Assembly: GCF_963921235.1 (NCBI RefSeq)
Contig: NC_086108.1
Location: 90,460,001-90,524,000 of the forward strand
Origin: Mobula hypostoma
Taxonomy: Eukaryota
Reading direction: 5' to 3'
DNA: 64,000 nucleotides
The notes under the pieces are model-generated. The model made no database searches and was not told the origin of the DNA. It worked only from the letters and a program-made list of their open reading frames with translations. Below, piece after piece: positions 2,801-60,675 of the stretch (positions within the stretch are counted from its first letter, which is position 1; every line of letters begins with the position of its first letter). Position numbers and translations under genes: made by a program.

Positions 2801-4014
2801 CACAATGTCATTAGTTTCAGGTTAATGATGGATAAAGATAGACCTGGTCCTCGAGTTGAGTTTCTAAATTGGAGAAAGGCCAATTTTGTGGAGATGAGAA
2901 AGGACCTAGGAAGAGTGGGATAAGTTGTTTTCTGGCAAGGATGTGTTTGGTGAGTGGAAAACCTTCAAAGGCAAGATTTTGAGAGTGCAGAGTTTGCATG
3001 TTCCTGCCAGGATTAAAGGCAAAGTTAACAGGCATAGGGAACCTTGGTTTTCAAGAGATATTGGTGATCTGGTTAACAAAAAGAGAGAGGTGTATAGCAA
3101 GTATAGGCAACTAGGAACAAATGAGGTATTTGAAGAGTATAGGAAGTGTAAGAAAATACTAAAGAAGGAAATCAGGAAGGCAAAAAGAAGACATGAGGTT
3201 GCTTTGGCAGATAATGTGAAGGTAAACCCGAAGGGTTTCTACAAATATATTAAGAGTAAAAGGATAGAAGGGACAAAATTGGTCCCCTAGAAGATCAGAG
3301 TGGTCATCTATGTGTGGAGCCTCACGAGATGGGGGAGATCTTAAACAGTATTTTTTGCATCGGTATTCACTCAGGAAACTGGCATAGTGTATATGGAAGG
3401 AAGGGAAACAAACAGTAGTGTCATGGAACATATAGAGATTAAAGAGGAGGAGGTGCTTGCTGCCTTACAGCGAATAAAGGTAGATAAATCCCCCGGGGCT
3501 GACAGGATATTTCCTTGGACATTGAGAGAGACTAGTGTAGAAATTACCAGGGCCCTGGCAGAAATATTCAAAATGTCCTTAGTCACTGGTGCGGTGCCTG
3601 AGGACTGGAGTGTGGTTCATATTGTTTCGTTGTTTAAAAAAGGCTCTAAAAGTAAACCAGGTAATTACAAACCAATGATCCTGACATCAGTAGTAAGTAA
3701 GTTATTAGAAGGTGTTCTGAGAGATCGGATATACAAGTATTTGGACAACCAAGGGCTGATTAAGGATGGTCAGCATGGCTTTGTGCATGGTAGGTCATGT
3801 TTAACGAATCTTGTAGAGTTTTTTGAGGAGGTTACAAAGAAAGTAGATGAGGGAAAGGCTGCGGATGTTGTCTACATGGACTTTAATAAGGCCTTTGACA
3901 AGGTCCCACATGGGAGGTTATTTCAGAAGGTTCAGACACTTGGGTATCCATGGAGAAGTTGTAAACTGGATTTGAAATTGGCTGTGTGGGGGAAGACAGA
4001 GAATAGTAGTGGAT

Positions 4015-4142
4015 CAACACATGCAAAAAATGCCAGGGTTGACTGTACCTCTTCCTATAGATGCTGCCTGGCCTGCTGAATTCACCAGCATTTTTTGTGT
4101 GTGTTGCTTGAATTTCCAGCATCTGCAGATTTCCTCGTGTGT
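4015..4142. mobile_element. Penelope-like element terminal (pLTR) fragment inserted in CR1
   Basis: gatgctgcctggcctgctgaattcaccagc..ttgaatttccagcatctgcag shared with copies at 25027, 33350, 37536 and 58683. Confidence 0.75.
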
Positions 4143-5199
4143 GAGTGGTGTGCATAATTGCTTCTCAGACTGGAGGCCTGTGACTAGTGGTGTGCCTCAG
4201 GGATCTGTGTTGGGACCATTGTTGTTTGTTGTCTATATCAATGATCTAGGTGAAAATGTAGAAAATTGGATAAGCAAGTTTGCTGATGACACTAAGATTG
4301 GAGGCGTTGTGGACAGCGAGGAAGGCTTTCAAAGCTTGCAGAGGGATCTGGACGAGCTGGAAAAATGGGCTCGAAAATGGCAGATGGAATTTAATGCAGT
4401 CAAGTGTGAGGTGTTGAATTTTGGAAGGACAAATCAAGGTAGGACATACACAGTAAATGGTAGGGCACTGAGGAGTGCAGAGAAACAAAGGGATCTGGGA
4501 ATTCAGATACATAATTCCCTAAAAATGGCATCACAGATGGACAGGGTGGTAAAGAAGGCTTTTGGCATCCTGGTGTTCATAAATCAAAGTATTGAGTATA
4601 GGAGTTCGGATGTTATGGCGAGGTTGTATAAGACATTGGTGAGGCCAAATTTGGAATATTGTGTGCAGTTCTGGTCACCTAACTATAGGAAGGATTTCAG
4701 TATGATTGAAAGTGTGCAGAGAAGATTTACTAGGATGTTGCCAGGTCTTTAAGACATGAGTTACAGGGAAAGATTGAACAGGTCAGGACTTTATTCCTTG
4801 GAGCGTAGAAGAATGAGGGGAGATTTGATAAAGGTTTACAAAATAATAAGGGGTATAGACAGAATAAATGTGAATAGGCTCTTTCCACTTAGATTAGGAG
4901 AGACAAATACGAGAGGACATGGCTTTAGGGTGAAAGGGGAAAGGTTTAGGGGGAACATTAGGGGGAAATTCTTCACTCAGAGAGCGGTGGGAGTGTGGAA
5001 CGAGCTGCCATCTGACGTGGTAAATGCTGGCTCATCTTGCGTTTTAAGAACAAATTGGATAGATACATGGATGGGAGAGGTCTGGAGGGTTATAGACTGG
5101 GAGTGGGTCAATGGGTCTAGCGGAATAAAGTTTCGGCACAGATTAGAAGGGCCGAATTGCCTGCTTTTTGTGCTGTAGTGTTCTTTGATTCTGTGATGT

Positions 5200-12995: not shown

Positions 12996-13388
12996 GTAAG
13001 GCTCTGAAAACTTCTACAGATGTACTGCAGAGAGCACTCTCACTGGCTGCTTCAACGTCTGGTATGGAGGTTGCTACTGCAGAGAGTTGTAAAGTTAGTC
13101 AGCTCCACCATGGGCATGAGCCTCCATAGTATCCAAAACACCTTCAAGCAGTGATGCCTCAGAAAGACGGTGTCTGTCATTAAGAACTTCCACCACCCAG
13201 AACATGCACTCTTCTCATTTACCATCAGGATGGAGGTACATAAGCCTTCATAAACATTTCTGAATGGACATTGAATCCATGAGCACTACCTCACTATGTT
13301 TTTATACCTGTCTTTTTGCACTACTTATTGAATTTAACTACTTGATATATACTTAGTGTAATTCCTAGTTTTTCTCTAGATTATCATG

Positions 13389-13929
13389 GTTTTCGGTCGG
13401 GCGCCGGGCGTTCGGAGAGATTTGGCAGGGGGTGGGCGCCCGGCACTCAGCCGGGGCCCATGGTCGAGTGGTCGGCGACTTGGGCCGGCTCCCCCACCGG
13501 ACTTAGTCTGGTGAGGAGGGTGTGAGGACACCCAGCAGGACTGAAAAAAAACAAGACCTGACAAAAGGCGGATGAGTTCCTTGTGAGCCAACGGCCATCT
13601 TCCGTGGAAGAGATTAAAGCCTCACCACGTATTTACGAATCTTATGCTATGCACTTAGTTAGAAGAGAGATGATGAACTTGGGTGCTGCGCCGTGTGCCT
13701 GGACCTGCCCAAGGCCTCCACCTAAGGAAGGGCCGAGCTCGAAGAAGCGGCCGCGGCTGGAGGCCGACACGGCCTCGGGCTCGAGTTCGGCGGGGGCGGC
13801 GGCGGGCGGTGCCAAGGCAGCCAGCGAGAACAAACTGGAGGAGAGGCTGCACTCGGTGCTGTCGCAAGATCGAAGAAGATGGAGGTGCATAGTGGCCAAC
13901 CCTGGATTTGGGACGGCACCCACTGACTG
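13389..13929 (+). mobile_element. Chimeric CpG-rich retro-insertion (unknown GC-rich head + SINE-like segment + CYHR1 fragments + RTE-like tail)
   Basis: Interrupts the Rex 3' UTR (..attatcatg | tattgc..) with ATCATG duplicated at 13383-13388 and 13930-13935; ends QDRRRWRCIVANPG + (actg)n. Confidence 0.85.
13684..13862 (+). pseudogene. CYHR1: Captured fragments of CYHR1/ZFTRAF1 (cysteine and histidine-rich protein 1) N-terminal coding sequence, order permuted
   Basis: 13684-13719 = [12 protein letters not shown]; 13721-13861 = PKEGPSSKKRPRLEA..AAAGG..KLEERLHSVL; vertebrate CYHR1 as I recall it reads ..KKRLR..[29 protein letters not shown]. Confidence 0.88.
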
Positions 13930-14926
13930 ATCATGTATTGCGTTGTACTGCTGCCACAAAGTTAACAAATTTTGTAACATACTCTGGTGATATTAAACCT
14001 GATTTTGATGTTGATTTATTGAGTATGCCTGCAAGAAAATGAATCTCAGGACTGTATATGGTGACTGTATTTTGAACTTTGAACTTAATTTCTCCTTTCC
14101 TAAACAAAGGTCCAATGATAGCTGTGCATCCGTCATCTGGCACCAGGTAGTCACAGTTGAAAGAATAACATTAGCCCTTCCATCCCCTGTGACTCTAAGT
14201 AGGCTTTGATCTATTTTATTTCCAGTTAGTGATTTACACTATTTACAAAAAGCTTTATGTATGTTTATCTAAAATTCCCCTTCAACTAAAATATTGCATT
14301 GTCCCTTCCCCATCAATTATTAAGACCGATGCAAACCTTCCCTGTGTTTTGCCTTATCTACCCTATATGCTGTCCAAGACTTGGAAGCCTCCAGTGTTAA
14401 TGGACTTTTTATTGTGTGGGCTATTTTGCTTGCACCTTCACTATCCATACGGTGAGTATTTCACGCTGCACTGAGGCTGGTTTATTCAGTCCTCCTGCTG
14501 TGTGACTGTTCAATGAAAATGGCCTTTCTCTAATTGAGGATGCTTACTCTGGACCTGTCTTTGACTTTGCTGTCCAATGCTACAGTTAATTAAATTTGCT
14601 TCACTACCTTTCCCACTGTTATTCTTTACACCTATTCCCTAAGTTTTCATTCAATGTAATCATCTCTTCTTGGTCTTGCATAGATTCTTCTTGTTTTCCT
14701 TTTCTGAATTTTTGAGGCTTCACCAATACTGGCTTTTTGTGCTTAAAAGTGATTATCAAAGTAAGATTATAAACTTTCATTAAAAGATTTAAGTAAGCCT
14801 ACTGCCTCTTGCTCATTAATTAGTTACCTCTTTTATCACTTCACTCCTAAGTTAGTAAAGTGAACCGAGCTAGGTTTTAGACAGATTTTTGTCTCTTTAA
14901 CCACCCACTTAATCTGAACACAATTT

Positions 14927-21721: not shown

Positions 21722-23375
21722 CAGTGCCTTAAAAAAAAGTATTCACCTCCCTCCTCCCTTGGAAGTTTTCATTTTTTAAATTGTTTTACAATATTGAATT
21801 AGTGGTTTTAATTTGGCTTTTTTTGAGACTGATCAACAGAAAACAACACTTTCGTGTCAAAGTGAAACCCGATCTCTATAAAGAGATCTAAATTAATTAC
21901 GAATTTAAAATACAAAATAATTAGTTGCTTTAGTATTCACTCCCTTTAATATGACACAGATCATTACTGCTGCGGCCAGTTGGTGTTAGAAGTCACATAG
22001 TTAAATAGAGATCACCGTGTGCAGTCAATGTGTTTCAATTGATTGTAGTAAAAAAAATTCACCTGCATCTGGAAGGTCCAACTGCTGGTGAGTCAGTATC
22101 CTGGTAAAAACTACACCATGAAGACAAAAGAACACTCCAAGCAGCTCCACAAGAAGGTTTTTGGAAAGCACAAATCAGGAGATGGATTCTGGAAAATTTT
22201 CAAGTCACTGAATATCCCTTGGAGTACAGTTAAGTCAATCAAGAAGTGGAAAGAATATGGCACAGCTGTAAATCTGCCTAGAGCAGGCCATCCTCAAAAA
22301 CTGAGTGACTGTGCAAGAAGGGGACTAATGAGGGAAGACAGCAAGAGACCTATGACAACCCCAGAGGAGTTACAAACTTCAGTGGCTGATATGGGAAAGA
22401 CTGCACATACAATTGTTGCCTGGGTGCTTCACCAGTTGCAGCTTTATGGGAGAGAGGCGAAGAGAGAGCCACTGTTCAAAAAAAAACTCACATGAAATCT
22501 CGGCTAGAGTTTGCTAGAAGGCATGTTGGAGATCCTGAAGTTAGCTGGAAGAAAGTTCTATGGTCTGATGAAACCAAAATTGAGCCTTTTGACCAACAGA
22601 CTAAACACCTTGTTTGTCATAAGTCAAACACCGCACATCATCAAAAACACACCATCTCTACCGTGAAGCATGGTGGTGACTGCAACTTTGCTGTGGGGAT
22701 GCTTCACTGCAGCAGGCCTGGAAGGCTTGTGAGGGTAAAGAGAAAAATGAATTCAGCTAAATACAGGGAAATCCTGGAGGAACACCTGATGTCTACAAGA
22801 GAACTGTGACTTGGGAGAAGCCTTGTTTTCCAGTACGACAATGACCCCAAGCATAAAGCCAAAGCTACACGGGAGTGGCTTAAAAACAGCAAAGTTAATA
22901 TACTAGAATCTCCAAGTCAGACAGACCTCAATCCAATTGAGAATTTGTGGCTGGACTTGAAAAGGTCTGTTCACTCATGATCCCCTTGCAATCTGACAAA
23001 GCTTGAGCAGTTTTGTAAAGAAGAATGGAAAAAAAATTGCAGAGTCCGGATGTGCAAACCTGATAGAGACCTATCCACACAGACTCAAGGCTGCAATTGC
23101 TGTCAAATTTGCATCTACTAATACTGACTGAAGGGGGTGAACACATATGCAATCAATTATTTTGTGTTTTATATTTGTAATTAATTTAGGTCACTTTGCA
23201 GAGATCTGTTTTCACTTTGACACAAAAGAGTCATTTTCTGTTGATCTGTCTCAAAAAAAAAGCCAAATTTCATCCACTGTGATTCAATGTTGTAAAACAA
23301 TAAAAAATGAAAACATTCCAGGGTGGTGGGGGGGGGGGGAGGAGAGATGGTGGTGAATACTTTTTATAGGCACTG
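21722..23375 (+). mobile_element. Full-length Tc1-family DNA transposon, IR/DR type
   Basis: TA TSD 21720-21721 / 23376-23377; termini cagtgcct..aaaagtattcacc / ggtgaatacttttt.aggcactg; inverted repeats of roughly 220-250 bp; transposase remnants. Confidence 0.97.
22118..23127 (+). pseudogene. Tc1 DD(34)E transposase, frameshifted
   Basis: [68 protein letters not shown]. Confidence 0.95.
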
Positions 23376-25799: not shown

Positions 25800-28110
25800 C
25801 ATAGAACCATAGAAACTACAGCACAGAAACAGGCCTTTTGGCCCTTCTTGGCTGTGCCGAACCACTTTCTGCCTAGTCCCACTGACCAGCACACGGACCA
25901 TATCCCTCCATACACCTCCCATCCATGTATCTGTCCAATTTATTCTTAAATGTTAAAAAAGAACCCACATTTACCACCTCGTCTGGCAGCTCATTCCATA
26001 CTCCCACCACTCTCTGTGTGAAGAAGCCCCCCCTAATGTTCCCTTTAAACTTTTCCCCCCTCACCCTTAACCCATGTCTGGTTTTTTTTCTCCCCTTGCC
26101 TCAGTGGAAAAAGCCTGCTTGCATTCACTCTATCTATACCCATCATAATTTTATACACCTCTATCAAATCTCCCCTCATTCTTCTACGCTCCAGGGAATA
26201 AAGTCCCAACCTATTCAACCTTTCTCTGTAACTGAGTTTCTCAAGTCCCGGCAACATCCTTGTAAACCTTCTCTGCACTCTTTCAACCTTATTTATATCC
26301 TTCCTGTAATTTGGTGACCAAAACTGAACACAATACTCCAGATTCGGCCTCACCAATGCCTTATACAACCTCATCATAACATTCCAGCTCTTATACTCAA
26401 TACTTTGATTAATAAAGGCCAATGTACCAAAAGCTCTCTTTACAACCCTATCTACCTGTGATGCCACTTTTAGGGAATTTTGTATCTGTATTCCTAGATC
26501 CCTCTGTTCCACTGTACTCCTCAGTGCCTTACCATTAACCCTGTATGTTCTACCTTGGTTTGTCCTTCCAACGTGCAATACCTCACACTTGTCTGTATTA
26601 AACTCCATCTGCCATTTTTCAGCCCATTTTTCCAGATGGTCTAAGTCCCTCTGCAGGCTCTGAAAACCTTCCTCACTGTCTACTACACCTCCAATCTTTG
26701 TATCATCAGCAAACTTGCTAATCCAATTTACCAGATTATCATCCAGATCATTGATATAGATGACAAATAACAATGGACCCAGCACTGATCCCTGTGGCAC
26801 ACCACTAGTCACAGGCCTCCACTCAGAGAAGCAATTCTCTACCACCACTCTCCAGCTTCTTCCATCGAGCCAACGTCTAATCCAATTTACCACCTCTCCA
26901 TGTATACCTAGCGACTGAATTTTCCTAACTAACCTCCCATGCGGGACCTTGTCAAAGGCCTTACTGAAGTCCATGTAGACAATATCCACTGCCTTCCCTT
27001 CATCCACTTTCCTGGTAACCTCCTCGAAAAACTCGAACAGATTGGTCAAACATGACCTACCACGCACAAAGCCATGTTGACTCTCCCTCATAAGCCCCTG
27101 TCTATCCAAATGCTTGTAGATTCTGTCTCTTAGTACTCCCTCCAATAACTTACCTACTACTGACGTTAAACTCACCGGCCTATAATTTCCCGGATTACTT
27201 TTTGATCCTTTTTTAAACAATGGAACAACATGAGCCACTCTCCAATCCTCCGGCACCTCACCTGTAGACAGCGACATTTTAAATATTTCTGCCAGGGCCC
27301 CCACAATTTCAACACTAGTCTCCTTCAAGGTCTGAGGGAACACCCTGTCAGGTCCCGGGGATTTATCCACTTTAATTTTCTTCAAGACAGCAAGCACCTT
27401 CTCCTTTTCAATCTGTACAATTTCCATGGTCTCACTACTTGATTTCCTCAATTCCATAGATTTCATGCCAGCTTCCTTAGTAAATACAGACGCAAAAAAC
27501 CTATTTAAGATCTCCCCCATTTCCTTTGGTTCCGCACAAAGCCAACCACTCTGATCTTCAAGAGGACAATTTTATCCCTTACAATCCTTTTGCTCTTACT
27601 ATACTTGTAAAAGCTCTTTGGATTATCCTTCACTTTTACTGCCAAGGCAACCTCATGTCTTCTTTTAGCCCTCCTGATTTCTTTCTTAAGTATTTTCTTG
27701 CACTTCTTATACTCAAACACCTGATTTACCCCCTGTTTCCTATACATTTCATACAACTAGGGTTCCTTATTCCTATTCAATTTGCCTTTAATCCTGACAG
27801 GAACATACAAACTCTGCACTCTCAAAATTTCCCCTTTGAAGGCTTCCCACCTACCAATCACATCTTTGCCAGAGAACAACCTGTCCCAATCCACGCTTTT
27901 TAGATCCTTTCTCATTTCTTCAAATTTGGCCTTCTTCCAGTTCAGAACCTCAACCCTAGGACCAGATCTATCCTTTCCGATGATCAAATTGAAACTAATG
28001 GTGTTATGATCACTGGAACCAAAGTGCTCCCCTACACAGACTTCTGTCACTTGCCCTAATTCGTTACCTAACAGGAGATCCAATATTGCATCCCCTCTAA
28101 TTGGTCCCTC
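25800..28110 (-). mobile_element. Young 5'-truncated CR1 LINE (491-aa open RT frame 26045-27520), abutting (TA)n at 28111-28136
   Basis: Complete RT motifs NYRPVSLTS, QHGF, GVPQGSVLGP, FADD; (ctatggtt)n-type tail; atagcc on both flanks. Confidence 0.96.
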
Positions 28111-49637: not shown

Positions 49638-51299
49638 CAATATTACACCTCTCCTTCAAGTAGTTTCCCACTAAACTGGAACTAAACTACAAGGGTGACT
49701 TTCATTTCTGCTGCAGAACCAAAATTACTTTAGATGCATTGTGCAATTGATGCTTACTTATGTAAACTTTGCAAAAGCGAATCCAAAGCATCAGTGACTC
49801 ATTCAGTGAAGCACGTGAGCCAGTGGACTTAGATTACAGTATCACTAGCACTTTAGCCTTGCTTTACAATGCCATAAAGCCTTATTAAGAGGTTCTGGAA
49901 AATACAAATTGTTTTTTAAAAGGTCACTTTCAAGCTGTAATACAGCAGGTCATCCATAAAGAGATTGCATTGGCAAAGCCTTTTATCTTCAGAGGGAAAC
50001 GTGTATTAGAAGATGAAGGCCTCAAATCCAGCATGTGCTTGGTCTACCAGGTAGCAGCAATCCCTGCCTTTCTGAATACTTCAGAGACATGGACTACATT
50101 CAGCAGGCACCTCGAAGCCCTGGGCAGTTGTTGTCAATGCTTCCTCTGCAATATCATTGAAATCCACTGTCAGGGTAAACAAATCAATACCATTGTCCAC
50201 TCCCACACCAGCATTTACAGCATTGAGGTATGGATTGTACCCAACCAGCTGCATTAGGTAGGCTATGTTATCTTCACGACTGACACTCAAACTCTAAAGG
50301 AACTGCTGCAGGCTCTCAAATCAAAAGATTTCCAAGACAACATAGATACGATTTCAACAATATTCTCACAGCCTCACTGAAACAATATGCTGCATTGATT
50401 GATCTGTGCTTATCCTTGATAGCACTCAAAAAGGAGAAGGAACATTTGGGAAGGCACTAAGTATCTCAAGTCTTTTTAATGGGAGAAAAAGCTGCAGAAG
50501 AAATGTTGATCTTTCGAACAGCTCTGTCACCTGCCTCTTCAAGCAATTGTTACCCCATCTGTAGCAGGTGTTGTGCATCTCACACTGGCTATATCAGCCA
50601 CCTCAGATTCCCCGAAACTGGAATTACACAAGTTATTGTTAATTTTTAAGATCTGCCTGAGAAGAGGAGTTATAGTTCTAACAATATCCCTCTCTTTTGT
50701 ACTCCGTTCCTTGCCCAGTCAATAAGGCTTAACAACTGCTTTTTTAGCCTATCTTGTCTTTAAAAATCTCTGCACGTACACCCCGAATTTCCTTTGTTCC
50801 TCCACATCTCTTAGCATGCTTCTATTTATTGCATATTTTCTTGTCTTGCTGTATTTTCTAAATGGATTATATTCCATTGCTCTTTTATCTCCAACTGTAT
50901 AAGATGTACTCTCGACCTCAAGCTATCTCATGATCTTGCACCAAATTGCCAATGCGCATTGCACTTTCTTTGTGCCTGTTACATTTTATTCTGTATTGTT
51001 ATTGTTTTACCTTGTACTACTTTAATGGACAATGTAATGGTTTGAGCTATATGAGCAAAATCGGAATCAAGTTTATTATCATTGACATTTGTTGTAATGT
51101 TGCAGAAGTACACTGCTGTCTACTGTATCTCTCTTTCTGGTTAACACGAGAGGGCACAGCTTTAAGGTGCTTGGAAGCAGGTACAGAGGAGGTGTCAGGG
51201 GTAAGTTTTTTTTACGCAAAGAGTGGTGAGTGAGTGGAATGGGCTGCCGGCAATGGTGGTGGAGGTGGATACGATAGGGTCTTTTAAGAGACTCTTGGA

Positions 51300-53999
51300 C
51301 TCTTGCTGGTTAGAGAGGAGATTAATGCAATAGAAAGGAAGGACATTAGCCAGGAGGATGTGGAATCGATATGGGTAGAGTTGCATAACACTAAGGGGCA
51401 GAAAACGCTGGTGGGAGTTGTGTACAGGCCACCTAACAGTAGTAGTGAGGTTGGGGATGGTATTAAACAGGAAATTAGAAATGTGTGCAATAAAGGAAAA
51501 GCAGTTATAATGGGTGACTTCAATCTACATATAGATTGGATGAACCAAATTGGTAAGGGTGCTAAGGAAGAGGATTTCTTGGAATGTATGCGGGATGGTT
51601 TATTGAACCAACCTGTTGAGGAACCAACTAGAGAGCAGGCTATTCTAGACTGGGTATTGAGCAATGAGGAAGGGTTAATTAGCAATCTTGTCGTGAGAGG
51701 CCCCTTGGGTAAGAGTGACCATAATACGGTGGAATTCTTCATTCAGCTGGAGAGTGACATAGTTAATTCAGAAACAAAGGTTCTGAACTTAAAGAAGGGT
51801 AACTTTGAAGGTATGAGATGTGAATTAGCTAAGGTAGACTGGCAAATGACACTTAAAGGGTTGGCGGTGGATATGCAATGGCAAGAATTTAAAGATCACA
51901 TGGATGAACTACAACAATTGTTCATCCCAGTTTGGCAAAAGAATAAATTAAGGAAGGTAGTGCACCTGTGGCTGACATGGGAAATTAGGGATAGTATCAA
52001 TTCCAAAGCAGAAGCATACAAATTAGCCAGAAAAAGTGGCTCACCTGAGGACTGGGAGAAATTCAGAGTTCAGCAGAGGAGGACAAAGGGCTTAATAAGG
52101 AAGGGGAAAAAAGATTATGAGAGAAAACTGGCAGGGAACATAAAAACTGACTGTAAAAGCTTTTATAGATATGTGAAAAGAAAAAGATTGGTTAAGACAA
52201 ATGTAGGTCCCCTACAGACAGTAACAGGTGAATTGATTATGGGGAGCAAGGCATTGGCAGACCAATTGAATAATTACTTTGGTTCTGTCTTCACTAAGGA
52301 GGACATAAATAATCTTCCAGAAATAGTAGGGGACAGAGGGTCCAGTGAGATGGAGGAACTGAGGGAAATGCATGTTAGTAGGGAAGTGGTGTTAGGTAAA
52401 TTGAAGGGATTAAAGGCAGATAAATCCCCAGGGCCAGATGGTCTGCATCCCAGAGTGCTTAAGGAAGTAGCCCAAGAAATAGTGGATGCATTAGTGATAA
52501 TTTTTCGGAACTCTTTAGATTCTGGTCTAGTTCCTGAGGATTGGAGGGTGGCTAATGTAACCGCACTTTTTAAAAAAGGAGGGAGAGAGAAACTGGGGAA
52601 TTTTAGACCGGTTAGCCTGACATCGGTGGTGGGGAAACTGCTAGAGTCAGTTATCAAAGATGTGATAACAACACATTTGGAAAGCAGTGAAATCATCGGT
52701 CAAAGTCAGCATGGATTTGTGAAAGGAAAATCATGTCTGACGAATCTCACAGAATTTTTTGAGGATGTAACTAGTAGAGTGGATAGGGGAGAACCAGTGG
52801 ATGTGGTATATTTGGATTTTCAAAAGGCTTTTGACAAGGTCCCACACGGGAGATTAGTGTGCAAGCTTAAAGCACACGGAATTGGGGGTAAGGTATTGAT
52901 GTGGATAGAGAATTGGTTGGCAGACAGGAATCAAAGAGTGGGAATAAATGGGACCTTTTCAGAATGGCAGGCAGTAACTAGTGGGGTACCGCAAGGCTCA
53001 GTGCTGGGACCCCAGTTGTTTACAATATATATTAATGACTTGGATGAGGGAATTAAATGCAGCATCTCCAAGTTTGCAGATGACACAAAGCTGGGCGGCA
53101 GTGTTAGCTGTGAGGAGGATGCTAAGAGGATGCAGGGTGACTTGGATAGGTTAGGTGAGTGGGCAAATTCATGGCAGATGCAATTTAATGTGGATAAATG
53201 TGAGGTTATCCACTTTGGTGGCAAAAACAGGAAAACAGATTATTATCTGAATGGTGGCCGATTAGGAAAAGGGGAGGTGCAACGAGACCTGGGTGTCATT
53301 ATACACCAGTCATTGAAAGTGGGCATGCAGGTACAGCAGGCGGTGAAAAAGGCGAATGGTATGCTGGCATTTATAGCGAGAGGATTCGAGTACAGGAGCA
53401 GGGAGGTACTACTGCAGTTGTACAAGGCCTTGGTGAGACCACACGTGGAGTATTGTGTGCAGTTTTGGTCCCCTGATCTGAGGAAAGACATCCTTGCCAT
53501 AGAAGGAGTACAAAGAAGGTTCACCAGATTGATTCCTGGGATGGCAGGACTTTCATATGATGAAAGACTGGATGAACTAGGCTTATACTTGTTGGAATTT
53601 AGAAGATTGAGGGGGATCTTATTGAAACGTATAAAATCCTAAAGGGATTGGACAGGCTAGATGCAGGAAGATTTATCCCGATATTGGGGAAGTTCAGAAC
53701 GAGCGGTCACAGTTTGTGGATAAAGGGGAAGCCTTTTAGGACCAAGATGAGGAAAAACTTCTTCACTCAGAGAGTGGTGAATCTGTGGAATTCTCTGCCA
53801 CAGGAAACAGTTGAGGCCAGTTGATTGGCTATATTTAAGAGGGAGTTAGATATGGCCCTTGTGGCTAAAGGGATCAGGGGGTATGGAGGGAAGGCTGGTA
53901 CAGGGTTCTGAGTTGGATGATCGTCCATGACCATACTGAATGGCGGTGCAGGCTCGAAGGGCCGAATGACCTACTCCTGCACCTATTTTGTATGTTTCT
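51300..53999 (+). mobile_element. Young 5'-truncated CR1 LINE inserted in another CR1 tail (51126-51299 + 54000-54120)
   Basis: Host text ttaagagactcttgga | taggtacatggagc matches the intact copy at 41654-41683; own tail tatgtttcta. Confidence 0.96.
51303..53642 (+). pseudogene. CR1 ORF2 (partial APE endonuclease + complete RT), 779 codons open, 5'-truncated with a frameshift near 53610
   Basis: ESIWVEL, GVVYRPP, MGDFN, ILDWVL, SDHN; KSPGPDG, NFRPVSLTS, QHGF, DFQKAFDKV, GVPQGSVLGP, KFADDTK. Confidence 0.93.

Positions 54000-60561: not shown

Positions 60562-60675
<114 letters not shown>

Follow-up and report, generated by a model that had tools for sequence, protein, structure and literature searches.

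The window analyzed here, a 64,000-nt stretch of Mobula hypostoma DNA (NC_086108.1, positions 90,460,001 to 90,524,000), contains a copy of a non-autonomous retroposon of about 570 bp, in which a permuted piece of a host gene lies between the two ends of one LINE. The initial annotation had described a capture event inside DPYD. We found instead one of many hundred retroposon copies, whose founder captured the gene piece once. The element is composite. From 5′ to 3′ it consists of a hairpin, the LINE 5′ end, 178 nt of ZFTRAF1 (CYHR1) exon 1 with the 3′ piece placed before the 5′ piece, the last 68 nt of the LINE and a short-repeat tail (Table 1). It has the hallmarks of mobilization in trans, namely both ends of the LINE, the absence of an RT and TPRT-type features; its insert is a single lap and its hairpin is marked by A>G changes. 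We are almost certain that this is a non-autonomous family mobilized in trans by an RTE-type LINE. It is a bipartite RTE element with a permuted host exon, and in resemblance it is also circRNA-pseudogene-like.

Table 1. Features of the retroposon copy and its surroundings, in positions of the window
Feature	Position	Strand	Evidence or remark
Retroposon copy	13385..13930	+	All-against-one BLAST, 30 loci: 5′ ends ragged, one sharp 3′ end in common at 13930
Left target-site duplication (likely), 6 nt, running into the start of the element	13383..13388	+	Same 6-mer at 13930-13935; short, to be read with caution
Fold-back hairpin at the 5′ end, with an inversely duplicated LINE 5′ end and inner arms; ADAR-like A>G; left arm truncated here	13385..13486	+	
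Parent RTE-type LINE, 5′ UTR and first codons; compared with three LINE copies, 7 nt and 10 nt are deleted	13459..13684	+	83-88% identity to L070, L072 and L073
ZFTRAF1 exon 1, 3′ piece, ending 4 nt before the splice donor	13685..13724	+	g1784-1823 = G000:C5:228091045-228091006; consensus and gene differ at 1/40 bases
ZFTRAF1 exon 1, 5′ piece	13725..13862	+	g1646-1783 = G000:C5:228091183-228091046; consensus and gene differ at 2/138 bases
RTE-type LINE, final ~68 nt, with the C-terminal codons, the stop and a 4-nt repeat tail	13863..13930	+	Common to 25/25 cut LINE loci; consensus equals the LINE majority at 79/79 aligned positions
DPYD exon 3 (context)	60592..60674	+	DPD residues 53-77, E = 1e-9

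A search with a 179-nt query gave 924 candidates, and all of the 40 that were scored matched over at least 177 nt at 94-100% identity. These 40 copies are located on many contigs and keep the same swapped order without exception; therefore, the order is due neither to chance nor to an assembly chimera. In the 30 loci that share window 13385-13930, the single sharp 3′ end is followed by a 4-nt repeat tail. Repeats of at least 7 nt were found at 25 of the 40 rows, and, judged by eye, a duplication of 7-13 nt abuts both ends in 16 of the 39 distinct copies (one row, L036, repeats L026). The present copy does not have approximately the first 23 nt found in the longest copies. An Rfam scan of window 13300-14000 gave no match near the gathering score and thus no sign, in that segment, of a head derived from tRNA, 7SL or a ribozyme. 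Some copies have been rearranged. At L029 (G000:C80:8176859-8180036), two retroposon copies stand head to head, ~355 nt apart, and form an inverted repeat of ~420 bp, and the copies at L006 and L019 are interrupted by sequences of ~250 and ~640 nt that were inserted later.

The location inside a DPYD intron stands as a description, although it is incidental to the origin of the element. Because exon 3 lies downstream in the window and no candidate for exon 2 was found within the window, the copy is likely in intron 2; exons 1 and 2 were not placed, and later DPYD exons and domains lie 130-540 kb downstream. This intron presumably also holds several LINE remnants that encode RT, one of them with an open frame of 784 aa, and what is left of a Tc1-like transposase, at 3345-5178, 26045-27571 (-), 51288-53642 and 22052-22968 of the window.

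CYHR1/ZFTRAF1 had been named as the source of the insert, and this identification was confirmed. The 47-residue 5′ gene piece matches a single protein, ZFTRAF1 of the sawfish Pristis pectinata (P0001, 67% identity, E = 5e-8). The host gene was located in the same genome on the minus strand of contig G000:C5, with four exon matches among 102 scored matches. The remaining 98 cover only residues ~43-113, and no second copy in native order is present among the 102, in agreement with the earlier view that the insert is not a processed pseudogene.

In the coordinates used below ('g', locus L034 read on the ZFTRAF1 gene strand), exon 1 ends at g1827. Window 13725-13862 aligns with g1646-1783 (134/138 identical) and window 13683-13719 with g1782-1818 (36/37 identical). 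The two pieces are neighbors in the gene, and their order is reversed in the window. The translations first read from 13684-13719 and 13721-13861 were correct, and the alignment bears out the adjacency in exon 1 (g1646-1783 and g1784-1823) that had been proposed for the pieces. Across the whole lap, 3 of 178 bases separate the element consensus from the gene. The insert amounts to exactly one lap, since its outer ends are adjoining gene bases with zero overlap; it opens between g1783 and g1784, which directly adjoin. Nothing was lost there, as had been claimed, and nothing was repeated. The 2-nt overlap once assigned to this point is specific to the present copy. Position 13684 is C in 31 of the 40 aligned rows, in 82 of the 100 genome matches listed and in the LINE; the overlap is therefore zero, and the apparent 2 nt reflect C>T decay of a CpG in this copy. 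Similarly, bases 13721-13724 do not begin the 5′ piece, as was first supposed, but end the 3′ piece (g1820-1823, with one T>C). The lap has replaced ~2.9 kb from the middle of the LINE. It lies in the mRNA sense with respect to the element and contains no intron base, and both LINE-gene joints are blunt with no base in common. A small circle, as had been suggested, is the likely template.

The inner junction, where the exon piece is joined to itself, closes at a weak acceptor-like AG and ends 4 nt before the splice donor of exon 1. Because of these two features, an RNA circle and a mononucleosome-sized DNA circle are both viable. The junction can be read in three ways. In the first, g1823 is joined directly to g1646 with one substitution, which gives 178 nt. 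In the second, the donor end g1827 is joined to the AG before g1648, which gives 180 nt (g1648-1827) in frame and without a stop, and 2 nt are lost afterwards. This second product is only a 2-nt deletion and one substitution away from the element junction, and it is what would be expected from back-splicing, or from a DNA circle using a 3-nt motif common to both ends. As microhomology at the closing junction, this motif applies only if the 2 nt were lost later. The third reading is a templated insertion of an 8-mer located 13 nt upstream (7/8 match), which is a sign of DNA end-joining. The AG at g1646-1647 is weak (GAG, 9/20 upstream pyrimidines, tied ninth among the 28 AGs of the exon), and a better acceptor (CAG, 15/20 pyrimidines) lies 24 nt upstream. 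No copy was found that keeps the two missing bases: the longer junction occurs in just two genome matches, which we rejected as copies with the full exon end because both are local duplications. A gene-like T at g1820 appears in 2 of the 40 rows and fits back mutation. The founder also carries two other small deletions, of 7 nt and 10 nt.

We put the chance that the lap was copied from an RNA circle at about even. An RNA template is backed by the sense orientation, the absence of intron bases and the closure 4 nt from the donor. Two features of circRNA pseudogenes, a non-colinear exonic junction and the absence of poly(A), are present; the junction itself lies 4 nt short of the donor, or is exact after a 2-nt deletion, and its acceptor is weak and unannotated. 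A true back-splice would account for about half of the chance given to an RNA circle. Against back-splicing speak the weak acceptor, the better one upstream of it and the failure to find any copy that retains the 2 nt; back-splicing from a first exon is also unusual.

It is quite possible, if short of probable, that the same retroposon took its lap from a microDNA circle of mononucleosome size, derived from the CpG-rich first exon. Such a circle, once opened, would either have been end-joined into an RTE copy that was broken or undergoing an internal deletion, or have served the RTE RT as a DNA template, and the nearness of the donor would be a coincidence or an effect of nucleosome positioning. 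The size (178-180 bp), the GC-richness and the position at the 5′ end of a gene are those of germ-line microDNA: spermatogenic eccDNA has a single size peak at ~180 bp, shows enrichment at 5′ UTRs and often has microhomology of <5 bp (PMC10581685). No splice acceptor would be needed, nor any 2-nt deletion if the circle was g1646-1823. However, the sense orientation then becomes a 1-in-2 chance, we estimate the chance of an end no more than 4 nt from the donor at a few per cent, and a simultaneous 2.9-kb deletion is required. The change from A-B to B-A is itself a published sign of circular DNA intermediates, as in human segmental duplications (PMC7450558) and tilapia vasa (PMC3245284). Published duplications of this kind are large single events with microhomologies or short indels, whereas here 178 bp with blunt outer joints and zero loss from the circle were subsequently amplified in a retroposon.

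A third explanation, which we consider improbable, needs no closed circle. RT would have made three jumps among linear pieces from a single (pre-)mRNA cut at g1783/1784, or would have jumped back within one linear RNA. The opening point falls at a stem/bulge border in three of four folds, and the start of the 5′ piece lies inside a stable hairpin, at which RT might pause, in all four; structured open RNAs can also mimic non-colinear junctions (PMC4897178). Yet base pairing between the lap ends in the mRNA was not predicted in any of the four folds (pair probability at most 0.013), one extra jump is needed, and both products of a single cut must have been used. That the structure is merely a one-off DPYD insertion or an assembly artefact has a negligible probability, as nothing except location speaks for it, while the LINE-to-gene left-junction pattern gave 439 exact matches against 0 for the control, and sequencing runs under five organism labels contain 23-67% of the words of the element.

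All 100 of the junction matches that were listed run on into the gene piece. We estimate the family at 800-1000 copies, allowing for divergence. In a sample skewed to the best matches, 356 of 14203 non-CpG bases and 353 of 2672 CpG bases differ from the consensus. The CpG at the junction had decayed in 42 of the 100 matches listed, which indicates that the family is older on average than the best-match sample. As for expression, no RNA run was among those listed with element words. Shared non-CpG changes, in L012 and L027 (both on G000:C96) and in 12 copies with one G>A in common, point to secondary source copies.

The parent LINE was recovered with the 3′-end pattern taken without gene context. 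It gave 143 matches, and all 25 of the cut loci align to the LINE 3′ part. Three of four extended loci were full-length (~3.2 kb), with one broken ORF carrying endonuclease and RT motifs, and Pfam identified Exo_endo_phos. The closest full-length relatives are single endonuclease-RT proteins of 1000-1015 aa (PF03372, PF14529 and PF00078). Several of them are named CFDP2-like, a kind of name that marks RTE/BovB endonucleases. We call the parent LINE RTE-type from its architecture and from these names. The single ORF of ~1000 aa with APE endonuclease and RT and the length of ~3.2 kb are those of the autonomous partner of bipartite RTE elements. The parent majority was based on three LINE copies, and it is relative to these that the 5′ part of the retroposon shows its 7- and 10-nt deletions. 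The left flank of the insert was considered as a LINE C-terminus and this was ruled out; it is the LINE 5′ UTR and ORF start. A search for an empty element, with both flanks within 30 nt, gave 0 exact matches, a search that a precursor with longer LINE remnants would escape.

Several LINE copies had features of their own. Two of the three full-length LINEs (L070 and L073) share a further 5′ stretch, ~45 nt upstream of the shared LINE start, that is absent from the retroposon, and the LINE may not always begin at the same point. At L071 (2677-3191), L054 and L061, the 5′ part of the LINE copy is inverted, resembling the products of twin priming; fold-backs at 5′ ends do occur in this LINE family. 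The loci L055 and L058 (G000:C2) show that an RTE copy was retrotransposed again together with a 340-nt insertion nested in it, giving two copies that are 98% alike with different flanks. We ruled it out as a second gene capture, since it is a LINE with a nested insertion that retrotransposed again. The RTE LINE readily re-mobilizes RNAs with internal passengers.

Like Bov-A, WALLSI3 and RTESINE1/2 (PMC5786205 and PMC7245038), the element combines a LINE 5′ UTR with the extreme 3′ end and microsatellite tail of the same LINE, has no RT and is mobilized in trans. R2 SIDEs (PMC3414825) likewise have LINE ends and no RT and move in trans. The copies are dispersed, with a fixed 3′ end, 5′ truncation and TSDs, as in bipartite RTE elements. 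The LINE parts are not alone, however, being accompanied by the 178-nt host insert and the hairpin head. The element is therefore a variant rather than a plain member of that group. Bipartite RTE derivatives are common and their heads are RNA-derived (PMC5786205, PMC7245038). The present element has a fold-back hairpin instead of a tRNA, 7SL or snoRNA head, and a swapped piece of a host protein-coding exon between its LINE parts, a filler absent from the portions of those descriptions that were available. PMC6007223 also belongs to the comparison literature. No description of this retroposon family, or of a permuted exon within an RTE derivative, was found in the literature covered; Repbase, Dfam and most subscription journals were outside this scope, and a prior description may exist.

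The longest copies open with an inverted copy of the first ~27 nt of the LINE and with inner arms. In a consensus of 15 aligned copies, 6-7 of which extend to the far end, the arms fold into a long double-stranded stem of 51 pairs (33 G-C, 14 G.U and 4 A-U) with one mismatch and terminal bulges. The consensus hairpin has a z-score of -9.6, with none of 200 shuffles as stable; for the present copy, z is -2.4. Seven of the 11 LINE adenines in the arms read G (3/5 left, 4/6 right), compared with 1 of 76 elsewhere in the LINE-derived sequence (Fisher test, P = 4e-7). All seven changes at arm adenines are A>G, and they are clustered, confined to the duplex and on the transcribed strand. Among copies that include these positions, the majority of the G's are close to fixation. 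Two further differences in the left arm are not A>G; one is a consensus-calling error and the other is CpG decay in the LINE copies. Three of the 14 G.U pairs could be CpG decay, and the other 11 are outside such a context, including four consecutive U facing four G. The polarity of the changes was read from three LINE copies for the outer half of the stem only, and that of the inner arms was taken from symmetry.

Such a pattern is what a perfect fold-back would leave if its RNA underwent A-to-I editing on both arms and was later reverse-transcribed. These patterns make it quite probable that the founder RNA was edited by ADAR before the family was amplified. If so, the expansion came after two or more rounds of retrotransposition. 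G is depleted upstream of ADAR-edited sites (PMC4365171); the comparison of this preference in the hairpin gave 6/14 and 3/4, a difference that is not significant (P = 0.58). Clustered A>G changes in both arms of a long hairpin resemble hyper-edited inverted repeats (PMC4365171, PMC4982230). Unlike in those cases, the changes here are fixed in genomic DNA as characters of a whole retroposon family. What part ADAR editing has in how Alu subfamilies evolve was given as undetermined in a 2016 review (PMC4982230).

In the scenario we propose, exon-1 RNA would have closed on itself near the splice donor, by back-splicing to the cryptic AG, by ligation or by an RT jump onto the exon 3′ end. In one retrotransposition, the RTE RT may have left the LINE RNA after 68 nt, copied the circle once round (or a once-cut circle from one end to the other) and returned by a jump to the 5′ part of the LINE. 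A 5′ fold-back would have yielded the hairpin of ~50 bp, whose transcript may have been A-to-I edited and recopied into DNA; the capture may have come before or after the fold-back and its editing. The edited copy would then have founded the family, and the LINE would have spread it to ~800-1000 sites. Double template jumps by LINE RTs have been published (PMC2104539 and PMC3414825). Taken from RNA closure through one-lap copying, fold-back and editing to amplification, the complete scenario stands at roughly even probability. It is a tentative and rather doubtful idea that the element is a double fossil of germ-line RNA, in which the copying of exactly one lap of a first-exon circRNA by the RTE RT between two jumps was followed by ADAR hyper-editing of the fold-back head. 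The edited form would have become the master copy for a family more numerous than the parent LINE, perhaps because the G.U-rich arms evade dsRNA sensing or silencing. Such a non-LTR retroposon family would owe its birth to a circRNA and its fixation to RNA editing.

The closest parallel on the RNA side is the circRNA pseudogenes, among them the 33 mouse circRFWD2 copies near LTRs (PMC4897178), which share the non-colinear exon junction, the absence of poly(A) and multiplication with a retroelement. The circRFWD2 copies differ in deriving from a multi-exon circle with annotated splice sites on both sides and a known expressed circRNA, and in being tens of copies of varying length in an LTR context. 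In our case, the insert is part of one first exon with an unannotated weak acceptor and 2 nt missing, the RNA circle is putative, the carrier is non-LTR, and one exact lap is present in hundreds of copies. Tripartite LINE chimeras made by a double template jump also fuse a foreign RNA copy to a LINE and have TSDs (PMC2104539). They are single copies of colinear RNAs, whereas here the middle part is permuted and lies between the ends of one LINE, and a family arose from it.

The route by which circular RNA or DNA enters genomes is an open question, and the mechanism was called mysterious for the circRFWD2 pseudogenes (PMC4897178). Hundreds of copies fix the founder junctions of this element at single-base precision, with one lap, no loss and blunt joints to a non-LTR element, and this constrains the mechanism. 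The family-wide A>G changes limited to the hairpin are a direct candidate for RNA editing that became heritable via retrotransposition and helped to shape a retroposon family. In practice, element copies will yield false ZFTRAF1 gene matches and false back-splice calls in ray genomes. Copies transcribed in antisense could putatively act on ZFTRAF1 mRNA. We also observed a 122-codon open frame across the insert (window 13562-13930, +). From a LINE-derived Met (93 aa), it reads through the 5′ piece of ZFTRAF1 in the frame native to that gene and finishes with the C-terminal codons and stop of the LINE; the chance of such a frame coincidence across the insert is about 1 in 9.
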